Part shown: in pieces, positions 38,726 to 45,338 of the stretch
How positions within the stretch are numbered: the stretch's first letter is position 1
Layout of the letters: each line of letters begins with the position of its first letter
The notes under the pieces: model-generated
What the model saw: only the letters and a program-made list of their open reading frames with translations
The model's database searches: none
Told to the model about the DNA's origin: nothing
Position numbers and translations under genes: made by a program
Assembly (NCBI GenBank): GCA_049976425.1
Contig: JBMFIG010000002.1
Span: 57,078-121,077, forward strand
Direction: 5' to 3'
From: Thermoproteus sp.
Lineage (GTDB): Archaea > Thermoproteota > Thermoprotei > Thermoproteales > Thermoproteaceae
Length of the DNA: 64,000 bases

Positions 38726-38740
38726 CAAAAAGTTTAAAAA
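38726..38740 (+). promoter_or_regulatory. BRE/TATA promoter of tRNA-Glu
   Basis: CAAAAAG-TTTAAAAA about 25 nt upstream of leader start. Confidence 0.7.
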
Positions 38741-38777
38741 TAGCGAAGTGTATGGGGGACGCCCCGGGCGTCGGGGA

Positions 38778-38898
38778 GCCGTGGCAAGCCGGCCACTCCA
38801 ACCGGTCGTCTAGTCCGGTCAAGGATATGGGCCTCTCGGGGCGCCGAAGGCCGCGCCGGAGGGAGCCCAAGACCCGGGTTCAAATCCCGGCCGGGGCA
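38778..38898 (+). tRNA. tRNA-Glu(CTC) with two introns (3/4: 38781-38801; 37/38: 38839-38863)
   Basis: Removing both introns gives GCCCCGG...CCGGGGC-A cloverleaf with anticodon CTC (38835-37) and TTCAAAT T-loop; BHB helices GGAG/CTCC and CTCT/GGAG; CCA not encoded. Confidence 0.92.
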
Positions 38899-38967
38899 TC
38901 CAATTCCTATTGATGCTATGGAGCAAGCCCCTATACGGCCCCTTGCGGCCGTCGGTGCGGGCGGCCG

Positions 38968-38980
38968 TAAAGCTTATAAA
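38968..38980 (+). promoter_or_regulatory. BRE/TATA promoter of tRNA-Asp
   Basis: TAAAG-CTTATAAA about 25 nt upstream of leader start. Confidence 0.7.
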
Positions 38981-39020
38981 CATCGCCCAGTTCTCCGATC
39001 GATGCCCCGGACGTCGGGGA

Positions 39021-39129
39021 GCCGTGGATCCGCCGGCGACGGCGGCCACTCCAACCGGTCGTATAGTCCGGACTAGTATGCGGGCCTGTCGAGCCCGTGA
39101 CCCGGGTTCAAATCCCGGCCGGGGCGCCA
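39021..39129 (+). tRNA. tRNA-Asp(GTC) with 3/4 intron (39024-39054)
   Basis: Spliced cloverleaf GCCCCGG...CCGGGGC-G-CCA, anticodon GTC; same GGAG/CTCC BHB. Confidence 0.93.
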
Positions 39130-39574
39130 CACCTTTCATTCCTCGTGGTATTAATTATCCTCATGGGTGTCTGATATTGGCTTAGTGGAGATTTGTTGTT
39201 TGCAACACTATGTTTATTCTTCGTGCAGTTCTGATATGATACGCATCAAGAGGCTAGTTGAGAAAGTGTGAATTGCGTTACCAGATATGTGATGGTAACT
39301 ATGTGGGGGTGTCTGTTGTGTGGCGCAGTTATTTGTTAAGCAGAGCGATTGTGATAGACCGTAGCAGGTCCAGCGCTGGCGTGAGGGAAATGTATCTAAG
39401 CGGCTTGTATATTTCGTAATGATATCTGCCTTACTCTGTGGTGGGGTGTTTTGGTTATGTAAATGCTGTAGCCGAGCGCGGCTAGTGCCGTGGCTGATGC
39501 GGGGGGTGCCCCGCTCGCCGGTGATTGCGACAAAGGCTATATTACGAGCCTAAGCGTCGCTAGTAAATATCTGA

Positions 39575-40282
39575 TCACAGCTTGACTAGGCCTAGGTAGA
39601 GTCTGCCTAGCTCTTTATTGTTTAGAAGCTCGCTGGCGGGTCCTGTGTAGTTTACGCGACCTGATACCAGTAGGTAGGCTTTGTCGGAGGTTTCGAGTGC
39701 CTTCTTGGCGTTTTGCTCGGCGAGTATTATGGTGTGGCCCATGTCTCTGAGTTTCTGGATAAGGGTTAGTATGTCTGTGGCGAATTTGGGGGATAGCTGG
39801 GCGGTGGGTTCGTCGAATAGGAAGTACTTGGCGTCTCTCATCAAGGCCATTGCCACGGCTATCATCTGCCTCCAGCCTCCGCTGAGTTCGCGGGCTGGTC
39901 TGTTTAGGTAGGGTTTTATGGGGACTATCTCCAGCACCTCCTCCAGCTTTCCTCTGAACCTCTCGGCGTCTAGGGTGTAGGCGGCCATTCTGAGGTTTTC
40001 TAGTACTGTGAGGTTTTGGAAGACGTTTTTTGTCTGCTGTAGGTAGGCTAGGCCGAGCCTGGCCCGTTCATGTGCGGGCATCTTGGTGGCGTCTCTGTCT
40101 CCTATGTAGACGTGGCCTCCGAATATCTTTGCAATTCCCGCGATGGCTTTGAGGAGGGTGGATTTCCCGCTTCCGTTTGGCCCCACGACTGCGGTTATCT
40201 CGCCGGGTCTCGCCTCTAGATCCGCTTCGTAGAGTACCTGCAACTTTCCGTAGCCCGCGTTGAGGGATTTCGCGGCGATCAT
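39575..40282 (-). CDS. livF: Branched-chain amino acid ABC transporter ATPase (LivF-like)
   Basis: GPNGSGKS, LSGG, DEPT..LSP, EQNA, YLG. Confidence 0.9.
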   Translation of the reverse strand: MIAAKSLNAGYGKLQVLYEADLEARPGEITAVVGPNGSGKSTLLKAIAGIAKIFGGHVYIGDRDATKMPAHERARLGLAYLQQTKNVFQNLTVLENLRMAAYTLDAERFRGKLEEVLEIVPIKPYLNRPARELSGGWRQMIAVAMALMRDAKYFLFDEPTAQLSPKFATDILTLIQKLRDMGHTIILAEQNAKKALETSDKAYLLVSGRVNYTGPASELLNNKELGRLYLGLVKL

Positions 40283-41022
40283 TCCCCCAAGTATATCTGG
40301 GCTACTAGGGGGTTTGTGAAGACTTGCTGGGGCGGCCCTTCAAGCACTACTTTACCTTCGTGCATGAAGTAGGCGTAGTCAGCGTAGTCTATGGCTAGGT
40401 CGAGCCGATGTTCCACGACTAGTAGCGCCACCCCGCTCTTGGCCAGATCTCTGAGCCTCTTGAAAAGGTCTAGGGCAAGGCTTGGGTTTAGCCCCGCCGC
40501 TGGCTCGTCTAGTAGGAGGACCTCCGCCCCTGACATCACCGCCCGCGCCAGCTCAAGTAGCTTCATCTGGCCGCCGCTGAGCTCCTCCGCGGGCCTGTCC
40601 CACATGTGGTCCAGCCCCACTAGTTTCAGCAACTGGAAGGCCTTCTCGGCGAGTTCCCTCTCTCCCCTCTGCCATCCGCCGAGGGTTGGCCTCTCCCGCT
40701 GGAGGTTGCCCACCACCACGTTGTCTAGGATCGTAAGCCTATACGCAATGCGGGGGGTCTGGAAGGTTCTGAATATGCCAAGCCTCCTCCGCTCGTGGGG
40801 CGGCGCCTTTGTTATGTTCCTCCCGCCGTAGTATATCCTCCCCCCATCTGGGGGGATTACGCCAGTTATTACGTTTATGAGGGTTGTCTTCCCCGAGCCG
40901 TTTGGCCCGGCTAGGAGGGTAAAAAAGCCCGGTTTCACCTCTACGGTGGCCCCGTCGAGGGCCTTGACTCCGCCGAAGCGCTTGACTACCCGCTCAGCTC
41001 TTAGTAATGGCCCAGATTTCAT
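40279..41022 (-). CDS. livG: Branched-chain amino acid ABC transporter ATPase (LivG-like)
   Basis: FGG..A, GPNGSGKT, RTFQ, LDEPAAGLNP, VEH, YLG. Confidence 0.9.
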   Translation of the reverse strand: MKSGPLLRAERVVKRFGGVKALDGATVEVKPGFFTLLAGPNGSGKTTLINVITGVIPPDGGRIYYGGRNITKAPPHERRRLGIFRTFQTPRIAYRLTILDNVVVGNLQRERPTLGGWQRGERELAEKAFQLLKLVGLDHMWDRPAEELSGGQMKLLELARAVMSGAEVLLLDEPAAGLNPSLALDLFKRLRDLAKSGVALLVVEHRLDLAIDYADYAYFMHEGKVVLEGPPQQVFTNPLVAQIYLGE

Positions 41023-42415
41023 AGTCGGCGATGTCTCTGTCCCCCGCCTCATTTAGCTTGGTGTATCCCGAGGCGCCGAAGTACTTGCCGGCGACATCGG
41101 GAAATATCTGTTGTATCTTCTGGGTGTCTGTGGTGCCGGCTTGGAGTATGGAGTAGGTGATTAGCCAGATAGCGTCGTAGGCGTTGTACGCATAGGAGTC
41201 TGGCTCTCTGTTATAGTTCTGGAGTATGTAGTTGCGGACTCTGTCGTAGTAGGGGCTACGGGCTGGGGCGAACTTGGGGCTGACGAACCCGCCGACCGCC
41301 ACGGCGAACTCGGCGGCGTCGGGGACCAACAGCTCTGTGAGTCCGGTGGAGCCGTCTGCGCCGTACCACTTGACTTGCCTCAGCTCGGGGTACTTGGCGG
41401 CGGTGATGAAGATAGTCTGCAACTCGGCGAATCCAAAGGCGGCGACGGCTACCTTATCAGCACCGTATTTAGACACGGCGTCTCTAACCTTCTGGGCCAA
41501 GACGCTTACCTCTGTGGAGAACTCGCCTTTCTGGGGGTCGTAAGTCGCGGCGCGGATCACCTCGAAGCCTCTGGACTGGGCTAGGGACTCCAAGCCCTTC
41601 ACGAGGCCGTTGCCCCAGTCGTCGTTGCGCCATATCACCACGACGGCCTTCACCCCCGCGTCTTGTAAAATCTTAGATATGGCCCTCACCTGTTTGTTAT
41701 CGTCAGGTGGGAGTCTGAATATGTAGTCGTTGGGTATCGCCAACGCCGGCGCCGTGGAGGATATGGATATTGTGATCAGCTTGTTCTCGTCGGCGTAGGG
41801 CTTCATGGTCCTGACCTCGCCGGAGGTCCTCACCACGTAGAACTTCACGCCTCTGCTGTGGAGAGCCTTCATCTGGTCAAGGGCCTTTGTGGGATCGGCC
41901 GCTGTGTCTGCCACCACTATTCTAATTCTAAAGGTAGCATTTATCTTAGTCAGATATGCGTTTACGTCGTGTTCCGCCAGCCTAGCCGCGGCGACGGCTA
42001 GCTCGCCTAAGGAGGCGAGGCGCCCACTGAGAGGTTGCAACACCCCAATCTCAACGACGTTCGGCGCCTCGGTGGGGTTGACGTCAACTATGACTGGGGT
42101 GAGATAGCCGGAGGGAGGTTGTTGCGCCGGGGGCTGTCCCTTCACCACCTTGTCGTCGGCCGCTATATACATTCCAATAAGAGTCCACTTATAGCTAGGC
42201 GCGGCGGATGTAGTAGCTGTCGCCGTTGGCAATGTAGTTGCCGTTATCTGCGTAGCGGTTGTGGCGGGGGGCGTTGTTGTCGCTGTGGGGGTGATAATCG
42301 GCGGTGGCTGTGTGGATGTTGTGGCTTGTTGAGGCGACACGCTGGCGTAGTAGAGAAGCACCGTTACTGCCACTGCAATAACAGCTATGATTATTCCCAT
42401 TATCATCTTATTCAT
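40994..42415 (-). CDS. Liv-type ABC substrate-binding protein, membrane anchored, apparently circularly permuted
   Basis: N-terminal TM + Thr/Pro linker; IGVLQPLSG, DTAADP, STAPAL, FRL.P.D, AYDAI, GASG...LNEAGDR. Confidence 0.88.
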   Translation of the reverse strand: MNKMIMGIIIAVIAVAVTVLLYYASVSPQQATTSTQPPPIITPTATTTPPATTATQITATTLPTATATTSAAPSYKWTLIGMYIAADDKVVKGQPPAQQPPSGYLTPVIVDVNPTEAPNVVEIGVLQPLSGRLASLGELAVAAARLAEHDVNAYLTKINATFRIRIVVADTAADPTKALDQMKALHSRGVKFYVVRTSGEVRTMKPYADENKLITISISSTAPALAIPNDYIFRLPPDDNKQVRAISKILQDAGVKAVVVIWRNDDWGNGLVKGLESLAQSRGFEVIRAATYDPQKGEFSTEVSVLAQKVRDAVSKYGADKVAVAAFGFAELQTIFITAAKYPELRQVKWYGADGSTGLTELLVPDAAEFAVAVGGFVSPKFAPARSPYYDRVRNYILQNYNREPDSYAYNAYDAIWLITYSILQAGTTDTQKIQQIFPDVAGKYFGASGYTKLNEAGDRDIADYEIWAITKS

Positions 42416-42479
42416 GTGTTGTTGTTTGACTGTATTTTTAAGCTTTAAGCTTTTAAAAGCCAGTTTTCTTTTCGATTTC

Positions 42480-43442
42480 ATGAAGATGATTTATCTAGTC
42501 GGGGCTGTATTTGCCGTATGGGCGGCTGTGTCTTGGTATTTCTGGCCTAGGGAGGTCGTGGACGCCGTGGTATACGCCTCTATTCTCGTGTTGGCCTCTA
42601 TCGGCTTGACGCTCGCCTATTTGACCACGAAGGTGCCCAACTTTGCTCACGGCGTTTTTATTAACATAGGCGTGGTCTCAGCTCTCTCGGTGGCGCAGAT
42701 TTACAAAACTGCGCCGTACGTCGCACTGCCCCTCGCCGTTGCGCTGTCTACCGCCGCGGCGCTGGGGCTGTATTTCTTCCTCCTGCCTCTCTACAAGAGG
42801 CAGAGCTCGCCGGATGTTATGATGATGGCCACGATGGCCTATAATATTGTGTTTATAGGTGTCTTAAATGCATATGCGGACTGGGCCGGGAGGACCTATG
42901 GCATATTCATGAGAGGGATTACCCTAGTGCCGTATGACGTCTCCATAGAGGGCTATCCCGGGGTCTACCTCCTGGCGCCGCTTGCCGCGGTGGCCACCTC
43001 AGTCGCTCTCCACCTCTTTCTCAAGACTAAGGTAGGGGCGGCTTTGAGGGCGGCTGTGGAGAACGAGGAACTAGCCAGATCTCTGGGAATAAACGTGGAG
43101 AGGATGTACGCACTGGCCTGGGCCATAGCGGGCGCCGTGGCGGGGATAGCTGGGGTCTTTCTGCCGCTTTACATCGAGGCTACGCCGGACGTGGGGTGGT
43201 TGCTACTCGTCAGCTTCTTCGCGGCGAGTATAGTAGGTGGTCTTAGCAATATCTATGGGGCCTTGGCTGGAGGGGTTTTGATGGGTTTTGTAGAAGTATT
43301 GGGGACTGTGCAGTTCGCCAGCCTGCTCTACTTCTTGTTTGGGATCCCCCAGTACCAGGTGACTGCCTACAGGCCGCTGGTGCCTCTGCTTGTGATTGCC
43401 GTGACGTTGCTAATCTCTCCGCGGGGCCTGTTGGGGAGATGA
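42480..43442 (+). CDS. livH: Branched-chain amino acid ABC permease (LivH-like)
   Basis: GLTL......NFAHG, TKVGAALRA..EN.ELA..LGIN, P.GLLG. Confidence 0.9.
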   Translation: MKMIYLVGAVFAVWAAVSWYFWPREVVDAVVYASILVLASIGLTLAYLTTKVPNFAHGVFINIGVVSALSVAQIYKTAPYVALPLAVALSTAAALGLYFFLLPLYKRQSSPDVMMMATMAYNIVFIGVLNAYADWAGRTYGIFMRGITLVPYDVSIEGYPGVYLLAPLAAVATSVALHLFLKTKVGAALRAAVENEELARSLGINVERMYALAWAIAGAVAGIAGVFLPLYIEATPDVGWLLLVSFFAASIVGGLSNIYGALAGGVLMGFVEVLGTVQFASLLYFLFGIPQYQVTAYRPLVPLLVIAVTLLISPRGLLGR

Positions 43443-44530
43443 GACTCTACGTTGGACTCATAGCGTACCTGGCCAGCGTAGCGCTTGTATGGGCCACTGG
43501 ACGCGACGTGGTTAGCTACCTACTCACGACTGTGGTTGACATATCTGTATATCTCCTTATTACTCTCTCACTTAACCTAGAAGCTGGCATCGCCGGCATT
43601 CCTAACTTCGGCAGAGTGCTCACCGTAGCCTTCGGCGCCTACGTCGCCGGCGGCGTTGTGGGAAGAGTTGCATTGTGGATAGCCGGCCTTAACTATGACT
43701 ACGTAGCTGACAACCCCTCCGCCGTGTCTGCCCTCGCGAGGAGCTTATCGCAACTTCAAGCCGCCCTACTCCTACTCATGGGGCTGGTCGCCAGCGCCTT
43801 GGTCGGCGCGGCGCTGGGCGCCCTCACCTCTCTGCCGGCGAGGAGGCTGTCAGCTGATTATCTGGCGATTACGTTGCTTGCTTTTGGCGACGTGGCTTAC
43901 TACGTGGGGCTCAACTACGAGCCGCTTGTAGGCGGCACTCTAGGCGTGGCGACGCCGCCGATATACGAGAGGCTTTTTGGAGGCGGCGCCGCGAGAGCCA
44001 TCGGGGCCGCGCTGGTGTCAACAGCCGTAGTGGCCGCCGCGTACGTCCTATTACTGAGGCTGGACAGGTCGCCTTTTGGCAGGATTTTGAGAATACATAG
44101 GGAAGATCCCGAACTGGTCTCTGTGCTGGGGAGGGATCCCGCGTTGCTGAGGGCTTGGACCATGGCTATCGGCGGCGCCGTGTCGGCTGTGGCAGGTCTC
44201 CTCTATGCCCTCTACGTGGGGGCTGTGCATCCAAGGGGTTTCGAGAGGACAACCTTTACCTTCTACCCGTGGCTTATAATGGTGATGGGAGGCATGGGCA
44301 ACAGCCGCGGGGCGGTGGAGGGCGTGTTTATATTTATAGTAATATACCGCCTCCTTGATATATACAAATACGAGGTGGGCGCCGTGGTGGGTTTCGACCC
44401 GGTGTGGCTTGGCTACATGCTGTTCGGCGCCATGGCCATGGTTATTATATTGACAATGCCCAGAGGGATACGCCCAGAGGAGATAAAGCCCCTAACCACG
44501 GAGCTGGTGACCGCCCGGCGGGAGGGGTAG
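43439..44530 (+). CDS. livM: Branched-chain amino acid ABC permease (LivM-like)
   Basis: SLNL..G..G..NFG, DYLAITLLAF, SPFGR.LR..RED, GGMGN. Confidence 0.9.
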   Translation: MRLYVGLIAYLASVALVWATGRDVVSYLLTTVVDISVYLLITLSLNLEAGIAGIPNFGRVLTVAFGAYVAGGVVGRVALWIAGLNYDYVADNPSAVSALARSLSQLQAALLLLMGLVASALVGAALGALTSLPARRLSADYLAITLLAFGDVAYYVGLNYEPLVGGTLGVATPPIYERLFGGGAARAIGAALVSTAVVAAAYVLLLRLDRSPFGRILRIHREDPELVSVLGRDPALLRAWTMAIGGAVSAVAGLLYALYVGAVHPRGFERTTFTFYPWLIMVMGGMGNSRGAVEGVFIFIVIYRLLDIYKYEVGAVVGFDPVWLGYMLFGAMAMVIILTMPRGIRPEEIKPLTTELVTARREG

Positions 44531-44735
44531 AGACGCTAACTAGGGCGTGTTGAGCCAGCGTGTATGCTAGGTAAAAACCGCCGTCCTAGTCTGCCTCGCT
44601 TTCTTGTTCGTCATTATAATACCTGCCACTCTCCCCGAATGGTAATCACTATCTGTTCGATTTCACCGATTTAGTTTTGTTAGAAGTTACTTTGGTATAG
44701 AAATGCTTAAAAATACATGTTCAACAACTAAAGAC

Positions 44736-44906
44736 GTGACAAAGTTGAAGAGTCCATATCTCGGGATGAGAATCCCGGAGGGTCTGTAATTTAACACCGA
44801 CCGAAGCGAGAAGTGCTTCAGAGACTACAAGGGTAAGTGGTTGTTGCTCTTCAGCTACCCTGCCGACTTCACGCCTGTGCGCATCACGGAGTTCGTTGCG
44901 TTCAGT
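44736..44906 (+). pseudogene. Peroxiredoxin (AhpC/Prx6-type) remnant
   Basis: Reads PYLGMRIPEGL*FNTD...[28 protein letters not shown]; in-frame TAA at 44787, peroxidatic Cys codon is CGC, truncated. Confidence 0.85.
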
Positions 44907-45338
44907 ACCTGGATGGACTACTTCTGGCTAACCTCATGGCATCCCTAGGCCGGCGCCGCGGCCCGCCTGCTCTCTGCCAGGCTATACGCCGTGTTTTTCG
45001 CGGCGCTGGCGGAACTCCTTATATACTTCGGCGCAGAGCTAATAGTGGGCGTAGTCGCCCCGCGGAAGAGCTATGCCGTTGTAATGATGGAGTCCCGCAA
45101 AGATCACCAGCACATCAGCTAGCAATATTTACACACGGCACAAAAACTTACGACCAAATTAAGCAACAGAAACATGGAGAGCCGTAGCGCCTTTTAACGA
45201 ACGGCGCGTCTTCCTCAAAAGTACTGAGGCGGATCCGTCGGCTCTCTGTTGTACATGTGGGCGGACGCGGACCTCGCTTGCGAACTTAACGCACCGGATA
45301 CTTTCGCGAGGCGTTGCCGTTCAGTAGTAGTCGCCGGC

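Follow-up and report, generated by a model that had tools for sequence, protein, structure and literature searches.

Introns between positions 3 and 4 of the mature tRNA (3/4 introns) occur in tRNA genes of the Thermoproteales. The non-canonical bulge-helix-bulge (BHB) introns of these genes, those at 3/4 included, have reportedly been described by Marck and Grosjean in 2003, Sugahara et al. in 2007 and 2008, and Fujishima et al. in 2010. Here we analyze two genes with such introns, tRNA-Glu(CUC) followed head to tail by tRNA-Asp(GUC), that occupy positions 38733-39129 of a 64,000-nucleotide stretch of Thermoproteus sp. DNA (the window), and a short sequence in their leaders that repeats the 5′ strand of their own acceptor stems. 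The window is part of contig C2 of genome G000, a 1.84-Mb assembly of 96 contigs with 60% G+C.

As far as the available portions of the literature go, the introns described for the Thermoproteales resemble those in the window in being spliced by proteins, in having a 4-base-pair (bp) helix between two 3-nucleotide (nt) bulges, in occupying sites other than the anticodon, in occurring several to a gene, and in having related sequences common to Glu and Asp genes. They differ in that the same portions mention neither a conserved leader copy of the acceptor strand nor its position at the start site or a role for it. In the split tRNAs of Nanoarchaeum, Caldivirga and the Desulfurococcales, as presented in the accessible sections of PMC4090602, PMC3218864 and PMC4033280, G+C-rich sequences outside the mature tRNA likewise hold the pieces together, present the BHB and are later discarded; in contrast, each window gene would be a single transcript, the helper would mimic the 5′ strand and pair with the gene's own 3′ acceptor strand in place of a dedicated complementary trailer, and the piece held would be a 3-nt exon. 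Joining of separate transcripts in trans is not indicated: each gene has a single TATA box, with none internally, and one RNA contig (run X1, discussed below) covers a whole precursor. Permuted tRNA precursors, in the accounts at hand, also undergo BHB processing ahead of end formation by RNase P and RNase Z, whereas the window genes have neither a permutation nor a circular intermediate. Finally, designed RNase P riboswitch leaders likewise determine by their shape whether an RNA is a substrate; as the available part of that report describes them (PMC8925977), they are synthetic, driven by a ligand and hide the leader, whereas the natural element would occupy the 3′ acceptor strand and be triggered by splicing. 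According to the part of its description available to us, tRNAscan-SE 2.0 adds 60 nt of flank to its candidates in order to find introns near the ends, so the participation of flanks is implicitly known. We found no description of an acceptor-strand copy in a leader; the primary papers on Thermoproteales introns and their supplements lie outside the text covered, so an earlier mention is possible. As far as searched, the conserved stand-in strand is an undescribed accessory.

We find that the leader takes part in the BHB of the 3/4 intron, that its copy of the acceptor strand is conserved, and that this copy is predicted to pair with the 3′ acceptor strand. We propose, with about as much confidence as doubt, that the copy stands in for the 5′ acceptor strand: by pairing with the 3′ strand it would free the real 5′ pieces for the BHB and clamp the 3-nt exon, and RNase P would then remove it.

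Layout of the two genes

Each gene has one TATA box. Read from the sequence, the 5′ region of tRNA-Glu (gene 1) is GAC GCCCCGG GCGT CGGGGA GCC, a 21-nt intron and CCGG, and that of tRNA-Asp (gene 2) is GAT GCCCCGG ACGT CGGGGA GCC, a 31-nt intron and CCGG; this is the layout on which the original prediction for this DNA was built, GA(C/T)GCCCCGG...GCC, intron, CCGG, and the sequence bears it out in both genes. The features are listed below, with the bases of the copy numbered l1-l7, leader nucleotides numbered backward from G1, and hyphens within bulges marking the splice sites.

38733..38740, + strand: TATA box of tRNA-Glu (TTTAAAAA), read from the sequence; 28 nt ahead of the leader copy
38761..38767, + strand: leader copy l1-l7 of tRNA-Glu, GCCCCGG, the same as mature positions 1-7; identified by conservation; predicted partner 38891-38897
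38768..38777, + strand: variable leader loop GCGT and G-run CGGGGA of tRNA-Glu, read from the sequence
38775-38777 plus G1 (38778), + strand: 5′ strand of the central BHB helix of tRNA-Glu, from helix covariation
38778..38780, + strand: exon 1 of tRNA-Glu (G1 C2 C3), from BHB geometry; splicing regains a 7-bp acceptor stem
38781..38801, + strand: 3/4 BHB intron of tRNA-Glu, 21 nt; hairpin TGGC/GCCA, CTCC at 38796-38799, bulge AA-C; covariation
38802..38838, + strand: exon 2 of tRNA-Glu (positions 4-37), C4 at 38802, anticodon CTC at 38835-38837; manual cloverleaf, Rfam match from 38802
38839..38863, + strand: second, canonical 37/38 intron of tRNA-Glu, 25 nt; full hBHBh′ with CTCT/GGAG helix, bulges CG-G and GG-A, and hairpin GGCGC/GCGCC
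38864..38898, + strand: exon 3 of tRNA-Glu; 3′ acceptor strand CCGGGGC at 38891-38897, discriminator A at 38898, CCA not encoded
38974..38980, + strand: TATA box of tRNA-Asp (TTATAAA), read from the sequence; 30 nt ahead of the leader copy
39004..39010, + strand: leader copy l1-l7 of tRNA-Asp, GCCCCGG; sequence, conservation and folding
39011..39020, + strand: leader loop ACGT and G-run CGGGGA of tRNA-Asp; 39018-39020 and G1 (39021) are the 5′ strand of the central BHB helix
39021..39023, + strand: exon 1 of tRNA-Asp (G1 C2 C3), read from the sequence
39024..39054, + strand: 3/4 BHB intron of tRNA-Asp, 31 nt; CTCC at 39049-39052, bulge AA-C; covariation
39055..39129, + strand: exon 2 of tRNA-Asp (positions 4-73 and an encoded CCA), C4 at 39055; anticodon GTC at 39088-39090, 3′ acceptor strand at 39119-39125; ARAGORN and Rfam

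Removal of the 3/4 intron joins GCC to CCGG, which then pairs with CCGGGGC in a standard cloverleaf (Rfam matches the remainder; manual reading gives the D, anticodon and T arms). In keeping with a broken 5′ acceptor strand, the Rfam tRNA model matches the two genes only from model positions 4 and 6 onward; ARAGORN misses the Glu gene and calls the Asp gene alone, with its 5′ end misplaced so that it starts within the last two bases of the intron. At a permissive threshold, Rfam found nothing around the genes beyond the two tRNAs and two chance matches. A palindrome in gene 1 (GACGCCC-C-GGGCGTC) was considered as an element and rejected because it is absent from gene 2 and from the relatives; a scan for sigma-70 promoters and terminators was set aside, the host being an archaeon.

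The leader is part of the 3/4 intron's splicing motif

A DNA search of 40 relatives confined the matches that include the leader to the window's own family (f1). The pattern at the junction of intron and exon 2 gave 53 matches in 23 of the 29 genomes of this family; seven lie in coding sequence and were discarded (L037, L052, L056, L066, L072, L074 and L079), which leaves 46 tRNA genes in 22 genomes (genus g1, 6/9; g3, 16/18; g2, 0/2). A second search added two 3/4-intron genes with variant junctions, L084 and L100. We counted 44 sequences from two genera and three isoacceptor families, leaving out exact duplicates between near-identical genomes, L065/L026 (cut by the start of a contig), L062 (G043; 3′ strand mismatching its own 5′ strand at a contig end, treated as an assembly problem) and L063 (normal 3′ end missing within the locus). 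For contrast, we assembled 33 distinct Glu and Asp genes that lack a 3/4 intron, drawn from this family and from two further families of the order. Covariation was scored on an alignment of 41 distinct 3/4-intron gene sequences (A1), and leader entropy on the 30 distinct leaders.

In both window genes the 3/4 intron, itself a known kind of archaeal BHB intron, has exact BHB geometry, that is, a 4-bp GGAG/CTCC helix between the 3-nt bulges CC-G and AA-C with the intron hairpin beyond. The GGAG strand consists of leader nucleotides −3 to −1 and G1 and stands opposite CTCC in the intron. In A1 the two BHB helices are paired in 99.1% of 321 cells, compared with 26-56% in controls in which the helices were slid; five of the eight pairs have changed on both sides, and in 500 shuffles neither the observed pairing nor the observed covariation score was reached. 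The central 4-bp helix is 100% paired in 41/41 genes with two of its four pairs covarying, and the outer helix on the intron side (h′, TGGC/GCCA) is paired in 98.1% of cells, with changes on both sides in three of four pairs. Leader nucleotide −1 changes together with the second base of the intron strand (AU in 26 genes, GC in 13, GU in 2); since this leader nucleotide covaries with the intron, an uncut leader is required at splicing, as had been predicted from the use of three leader nucleotides by the GGAG/CTCC helix. At the level of sequence, covariation shows both the position of the intron and the helix between leader and intron, and the leader must, on this evidence, be present when splicing occurs. 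On the exon side, an outer helix (h) between leader nucleotides −7 to −4 and C4-G7 has four pairs in the window genes, and these only with a 2-nt bulge.

Two other placements of the intron, with the copy as exon 1 and a 7/8 intron, or with the leader GCC joined to C4, were rejected by hand, because neither site allows a 4-bp helix flanked by 3-nt bulges and the upstream bases that they need are unconserved.

The predicted enzymes are encoded by the host: a gene for the catalytic subunit of EndA (tRNA_int_endo, 92.2 bits; G000:C13:21884-22114) as the cutter and one for RtcB (592 bits; G000:C27:13349-14659) as the joiner. The type-T RNase P RNA, RNaseP-T (RF02357), scores 207-212 bits in G007 (the closest relative), G016 and G010; neither it nor RNaseP_arch (RF00373) was found in the 96 contigs of G000, in which the RNA is probably unassembled.

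Position and conservation of the leader copy

A heptamer copy of positions 1-7 is present in 44/44 genes with a 3/4 intron, as GCCCCGG in 34, with one C>T change in eight and with G7>C in two; this count is partly circular, because l1 was located by the motif, and the constant distance from the TATA box is its independent part. That distance is 25-30 nt (median 26) in all 44 genes. In the Glu and Asp genes without the intron, the TATA box precedes G1 by 26-33 nt in 25 of the 28 with a recognizable TATA box (median 28.5; outliers 17, 48 and 48). The matching spacings imply that the copy occupies the place of the mature 5′ end, at or next to the transcription start. The start at the leader that the original prediction took from the TATA boxes is thus the predicted one throughout the 44 genes, and we infer from the promoter spacing and one weak RNA clue that transcription begins at or near the copy.

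The original prediction proposed conservation among relatives as a check on the leader, and the copy is conserved: the entropy of columns l1-l7 is 0-0.57 bits, whereas that of the ten upstream columns is 1.4-2.0 bits and that of the loop that follows is 1.5-1.8 bits. Positions l1 and l6 are invariant and l7 is the same in 28 of the 30 leaders; two leaders have G7>C, and the only other substitutions are C>T, which can still form G·U pairs with the invariant 3′ strand. The prediction had extended the copy to mature positions 1-11. For positions 8-11 (NCGT) the likeness is specific to lineages, with columns l8-l10 at 1.5-1.8 bits, so the claim stands for positions 1-7 and fails for the rest. In genome G000 a perfect GCCCCGG is expected by chance 0.004 times per 39 start positions. 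Among the intron-less Glu and Asp genes a relaxed match to the copy occurs in 1/33, where it lies upstream of that gene's TATA box, and a separate upstream copy was found in 0/26 other tRNA matches tested in G000 (an upstream match for tRNA-Gln is that gene's own true 5′ end). By its conservation the copy is shown to be under selection, as conserved as the exon itself.

This constraint bears on the possibility that the copy is a scar of its origin and has no function now, that is, an old 5′ end left behind when a block of 35-60 nt (loop, G-run, GCC, intron and CCGG) was inserted after position 7, or when a local duplication occurred. The TATA-to-copy distance does equal the TATA-to-G1 distance of the intron-less genes, deletion of l8 to G7 yields exactly an intron-less gene, the intron-less members of the family also lack the block, and one of them (L086) keeps a decayed look-alike, GCCCCTGG..CCGG, directly ahead of G1. 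A neutral copy would nonetheless have decayed like its flanks in two genera and three isoacceptor families, and its substitutions would not be limited to those that preserve pairing; we therefore give little credence to a scar without present function. A scar origin and a present function are not exclusive, and the element may have arisen in this way: the equal promoter spacing and the l8-G7 deletion suggest gain or loss of the block in one step between identical heptamers, with the copy as an old 5′ end kept for a new use. This would be a concrete one-step path of intron gain and loss between two identical 7-nt repeats.

Two intron-less genes may represent stages after loss of the 3/4 intron, as anecdotes. 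In L086 (G024:C115:6492-6777), GCCCCTGG-GTCAA-CCGG lies directly ahead of G1, and the TATA box is only about 16 nt before that copy. In L092 (G015:C1:1131675-1131960), the TATA box is 44 nt from G1, and a hairpin, GCCGCG/CGCGGC, starts where the copy usually starts.

The fixed distance from the TATA box and the position at the predicted start site would also suit a promoter element that acts in DNA, that is, an initiator or a signal for the initially melted region that need not be present in RNA. We consider this very improbable: the heptamer is identical to the tRNA's own strand, the intron-less genes have their transcribed mature 5′ end at this place, and the other tRNA genes of G000 carry other sequences there. 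In addition, RNA covers the heptamer. Run X1, from the organism of locus L007, contains a 162-nt contig with a depth of 155 that begins 10 nt ahead of the copy (l1 = 1503) and spans both introns of the gene, with depths of 19.9 and 53.1 for the neighboring contigs; this suggests, though weakly, that an abundant unspliced precursor includes the copy. The hot-spring metatranscriptomes X19 and X20 have 0 reads on the locus.

In the tRNA-Glu genes L009/L073 (G001) and L006-/L076 (G006), the leaders are 30-32 nt long and combine the copy with a tight GCCCC/GGGGC hairpin. They also contain GGCCGGGC, which resembles the junction of their own T stem and 3′ acceptor strand (GGCCGGGGC), as though remnants of an entire upstream minihelix were present.

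The pairing partner of the copy

The original prediction left two partners for the copy, the 3′ acceptor strand or the leader itself. With the invariant 3′ strand CCGGGGC the copy makes 7/7 pairs in 28 of the 30 distinct leaders and 6/7 in the other two. The predicted probability of this helix in the 44 genes has a median of 1.00 at 37 °C and 0.96 at 85 °C, and the helix is present in the minimum-free-energy and centroid folds of both window precursors. It is thus predicted from folding and has the support of conservation.

The other partner would be the leader's own G-run (CCCCG/CGGGG), in a hairpin that protects the 5′ end, tunes RNase P or competes with the BHB as a switch, the likeness to the acceptor strand being a side effect of the requirement for pairing with the G-run. 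The copy and G-run are complementary in both window genes, a matched change occurs in one lineage (GCCTCGG with CGAGGA in L006+/L075), the intron-less tRNA-Asp gene L092 retains a leader hairpin at the same TATA distance after the acceptor match is gone, and after splicing in silico the hairpin forms in the minority of genes in which the native stem wins. In A1, however, the hairpin is paired in 83.9% of cells compared with 81.9% in shuffles, with four cells changed on both sides, and its 3′ strand shares 2-3 nt with the covarying BHB helix, which prevents the two from forming together. Although l1 and l6 never vary and l7 hardly does, the hairpin would leave l1 without a partner and engage l6 and l7 in some of the leaders only. 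A free hairpin should also covary like the hairpin of the intron, and it does not; because the intron hairpin covaries freely and the copy is rigid, an invariant partner, the 3′ strand, is indicated. A leader hairpin as the sole reason for the copy is therefore unlikely. Of the two partners first envisaged, the 3′ strand is the one favored by folding and conservation, and the proposed check by leader covariation succeeds for nucleotide −1 and the intron and fails for the leader's own hairpin.

A proposed role in splicing

In the mechanism that we propose, each gene would be transcribed from its own TATA box, with the start at or a few bases ahead of the 7-nt copy. In the unspliced precursor the copy, instead of the interrupted real 5′ strand, would pair with the 3′ acceptor strand (positions 66-72), so that the body takes the shape of a tRNA from which a side arm projects between positions 7 and 8. 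This arm (leader G-run, G1-C3, intron and C4-G7) would fold into the BHB, its central helix formed by leader nucleotides −3 to −1 and G1 with CTCC, and the splicing endonuclease would cut CC-G and AA-C. The 5′ product, that is, the leader and three exon bases, would be retained on the body by the spare strand, still paired to the 3′ strand, while RtcB ligates C3 to C4. The continuous real 5′ strand would then exchange with the identical spare strand, and RNase P would trim the leader of 17-32 nt. The clamp role and the pairing of the copy with the 3′ strand come from folding predictions only; the strand exchange and the cleavage of the leader by RNase P are pure inference.

The predicted energies address both functions assigned to the copy. 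The state that combines its helix with the central BHB helix lies 2.8 kcal/mol (37 °C) and 1.5 kcal/mol (85 °C) above the unconstrained optimum and is preferred to the split native acceptor stem in 44/44 genes (median −7.6 and −6.1 kcal/mol, respectively). After the cut, the 5′ cleavage product is predicted to bind the tRNA body at 85 °C with a median of −5.8 kcal/mol (below −3 in 43/44 genes); with the copy deleted, the median is −1.0 kcal/mol (below −3 in 4/44 genes). In the model, holding the product after the cut is a stronger rationale for the copy than the gain in the BHB-competent state.

The same predicted helix could serve as a timing gate for RNase P, as the original prediction had it: the copy would hide the 3′ acceptor strand until splicing and then release it. 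Such a gate would be favored by the location of the copy at the 5′ end of the transcript, where the stand-in stem gives RNase P nothing to cut, by the reduced type-T RNase P RNA of the family, and by the designed leaders whose change of shape is known, from the part of PMC8925977 available, to gate RNase P. Before splicing, though, the intron has already split the real acceptor strand into 3 + 4 bases; without the copy the BHB-competent state is still preferred to the split stem (median −4.3 kcal/mol at 37 °C and −2.0 kcal/mol at 85 °C), so a gate adds little; and release after splicing is unsupported by folding. We regard the gate as quite unlikely, and a role as stand-in and clamp fits better than a timing switch. 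The copy is also not needed to order splicing and RNase P cleavage, as had been claimed for it, because that order already follows from the split acceptor strand and the leader-dependent BHB. Of the earlier alternatives, surrogate strand or conformational switch, the surrogate is favored by the predicted helix and its strong constraint, and a switch that occurs spontaneously after splicing is disfavored because folding keeps the spare strand in place.

Several results weigh against the stand-in strand. When the copy is deleted in silico, the BHB-competent state loses just 3-4 kcal/mol of its advantage; the central BHB helix has a low predicted probability even with the copy (median 0.02-0.07); and the fold energies of the whole precursors are ordinary (z = −1.6 and −1.2). 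Because the 3′ acceptor strand is invariant, its helix with the copy is beyond proof by covariation within the family. The exon-side outer helix with C4-G7 is paired in 70.1% of cells family-wide, without covariation (none is possible), and is weak enough that the BHB motif is best called relaxed; on the same figure we rejected this leader-built helix as the conserved reason for the G-run. After splicing in silico, the spare strand still pairs with the 3′ strand (median probability 0.91 at 37 °C and 0.92 at 85 °C), and the native stem is favored in 7/44 genes at 37 °C and in 0/44 at 85 °C. Thermodynamics thus leaves the hand-over unexplained, so RNase P or kinetics is needed; the drive would have to come from RNase P, through irreversible cutting of a minor conformer, or from factors outside the folding model. 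Among the RNA data, run X2 (also from the organism of L007) has a single contig over the region without a step in depth, and neither X1 nor X2 has a spliced or leader-plus-spliced contig, although contigs drop rare forms; contigs cannot show ends, and carry-over of DNA is possible in both runs.

If the proposed role is correct, it would be a new working part of archaeal tRNA maturation, a disposable strand encoded by the leader that makes introns at the extreme 5′ end workable at 85-100 °C. It would provide a clear natural case in which splicing is obligatorily ahead of 5′ trimming, and it would explain the miscalls of gene finders (e.g., by ARAGORN, which misses one gene and misplaces the 5′ end of the other). 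A rule that applies throughout archaeal tRNA splicing is conceivable, in which any BHB intron that leaves a 5′ exon of 3-8 nt would be accompanied by a spare acceptor strand in the leader as stand-in and clamp; we offer this only tentatively and lean against it. If true, the spare strand would be the intramolecular counterpart of the helper sequences of split tRNAs and perhaps an intermediate step between cis-spliced and split tRNA genes.

Other tRNA genes and the neighboring DNA

Several other interrupted tRNA genes were encountered. In the tRNA-Asp genes L102 (G011:C24:19203-19520) and L103 (G009:C55:15990-16304) of genus g2, an insert of about 110 nt at 37/38 contains an internal TATA-like box (AAACCTTAAAAGA / AAACCTTAATAATA) and, beside the splice sites, a 12-bp G+C-rich stem; these genes look like the 'adjacent split' tRNA-Asp described, in the text available, for Aeropyrum. 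The Glu and Asp genes of genus g3 have up to three introns each: several among L007/L031 (G016), L104 (G013) and L108 (G024) have an extra T-loop intron of about 20 nt (TTCAAA-intron-ATCC), and others have D-loop introns. Only the 3′ part of a Glu-type tRNA, from the anticodon arm to the 3′ end and with an insert before the T arm, is present in L107 (G017:C1:570495-570780), with no recognizable 5′ part within 200 nt; it may be a pseudogene, half of a split gene or an integration scar.

Two tRNA genes of G000 (G000:C37:630-733, + strand; G000:C1:312152-312260, − strand) have CGGGCCG where the 3′ strand CGGCCCC calls for GGGGCCG, placing C opposite C at 1-72; in the third G000 gene with this 3′ strand (C10) the expected G is present. 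The C:C could reflect a plain mismatch, a 5′ base provided in another way, or a very early intron. Searches with Glu and Asp exons gave no clear match to a tRNA-Glu(UUC) gene in G000 or G007; tRNA-Glu(CUC) and tRNA-Asp were found. Rfam gives just 30 tRNA matches in G000, which implies that many heavily interrupted tRNA genes are still uncalled.

Directly after tRNA-Asp, a 6.07-kb block (39126-45193) is missing from the 97-99% identical relative G007, in which synteny returns at window position 45194. The idea that the block is an integrated mobile element was rejected, since it lacks an integrase and a repeat of the tRNA end. The block encodes a Liv-type branched-chain amino-acid ATP-binding cassette (ABC) transporter (two ATPases, a binding protein and two permeases), and over its first ~410 nt it shares 71% identity with the sequence that immediately follows tRNA-Asp in G012 and G023, which belong to another genus.

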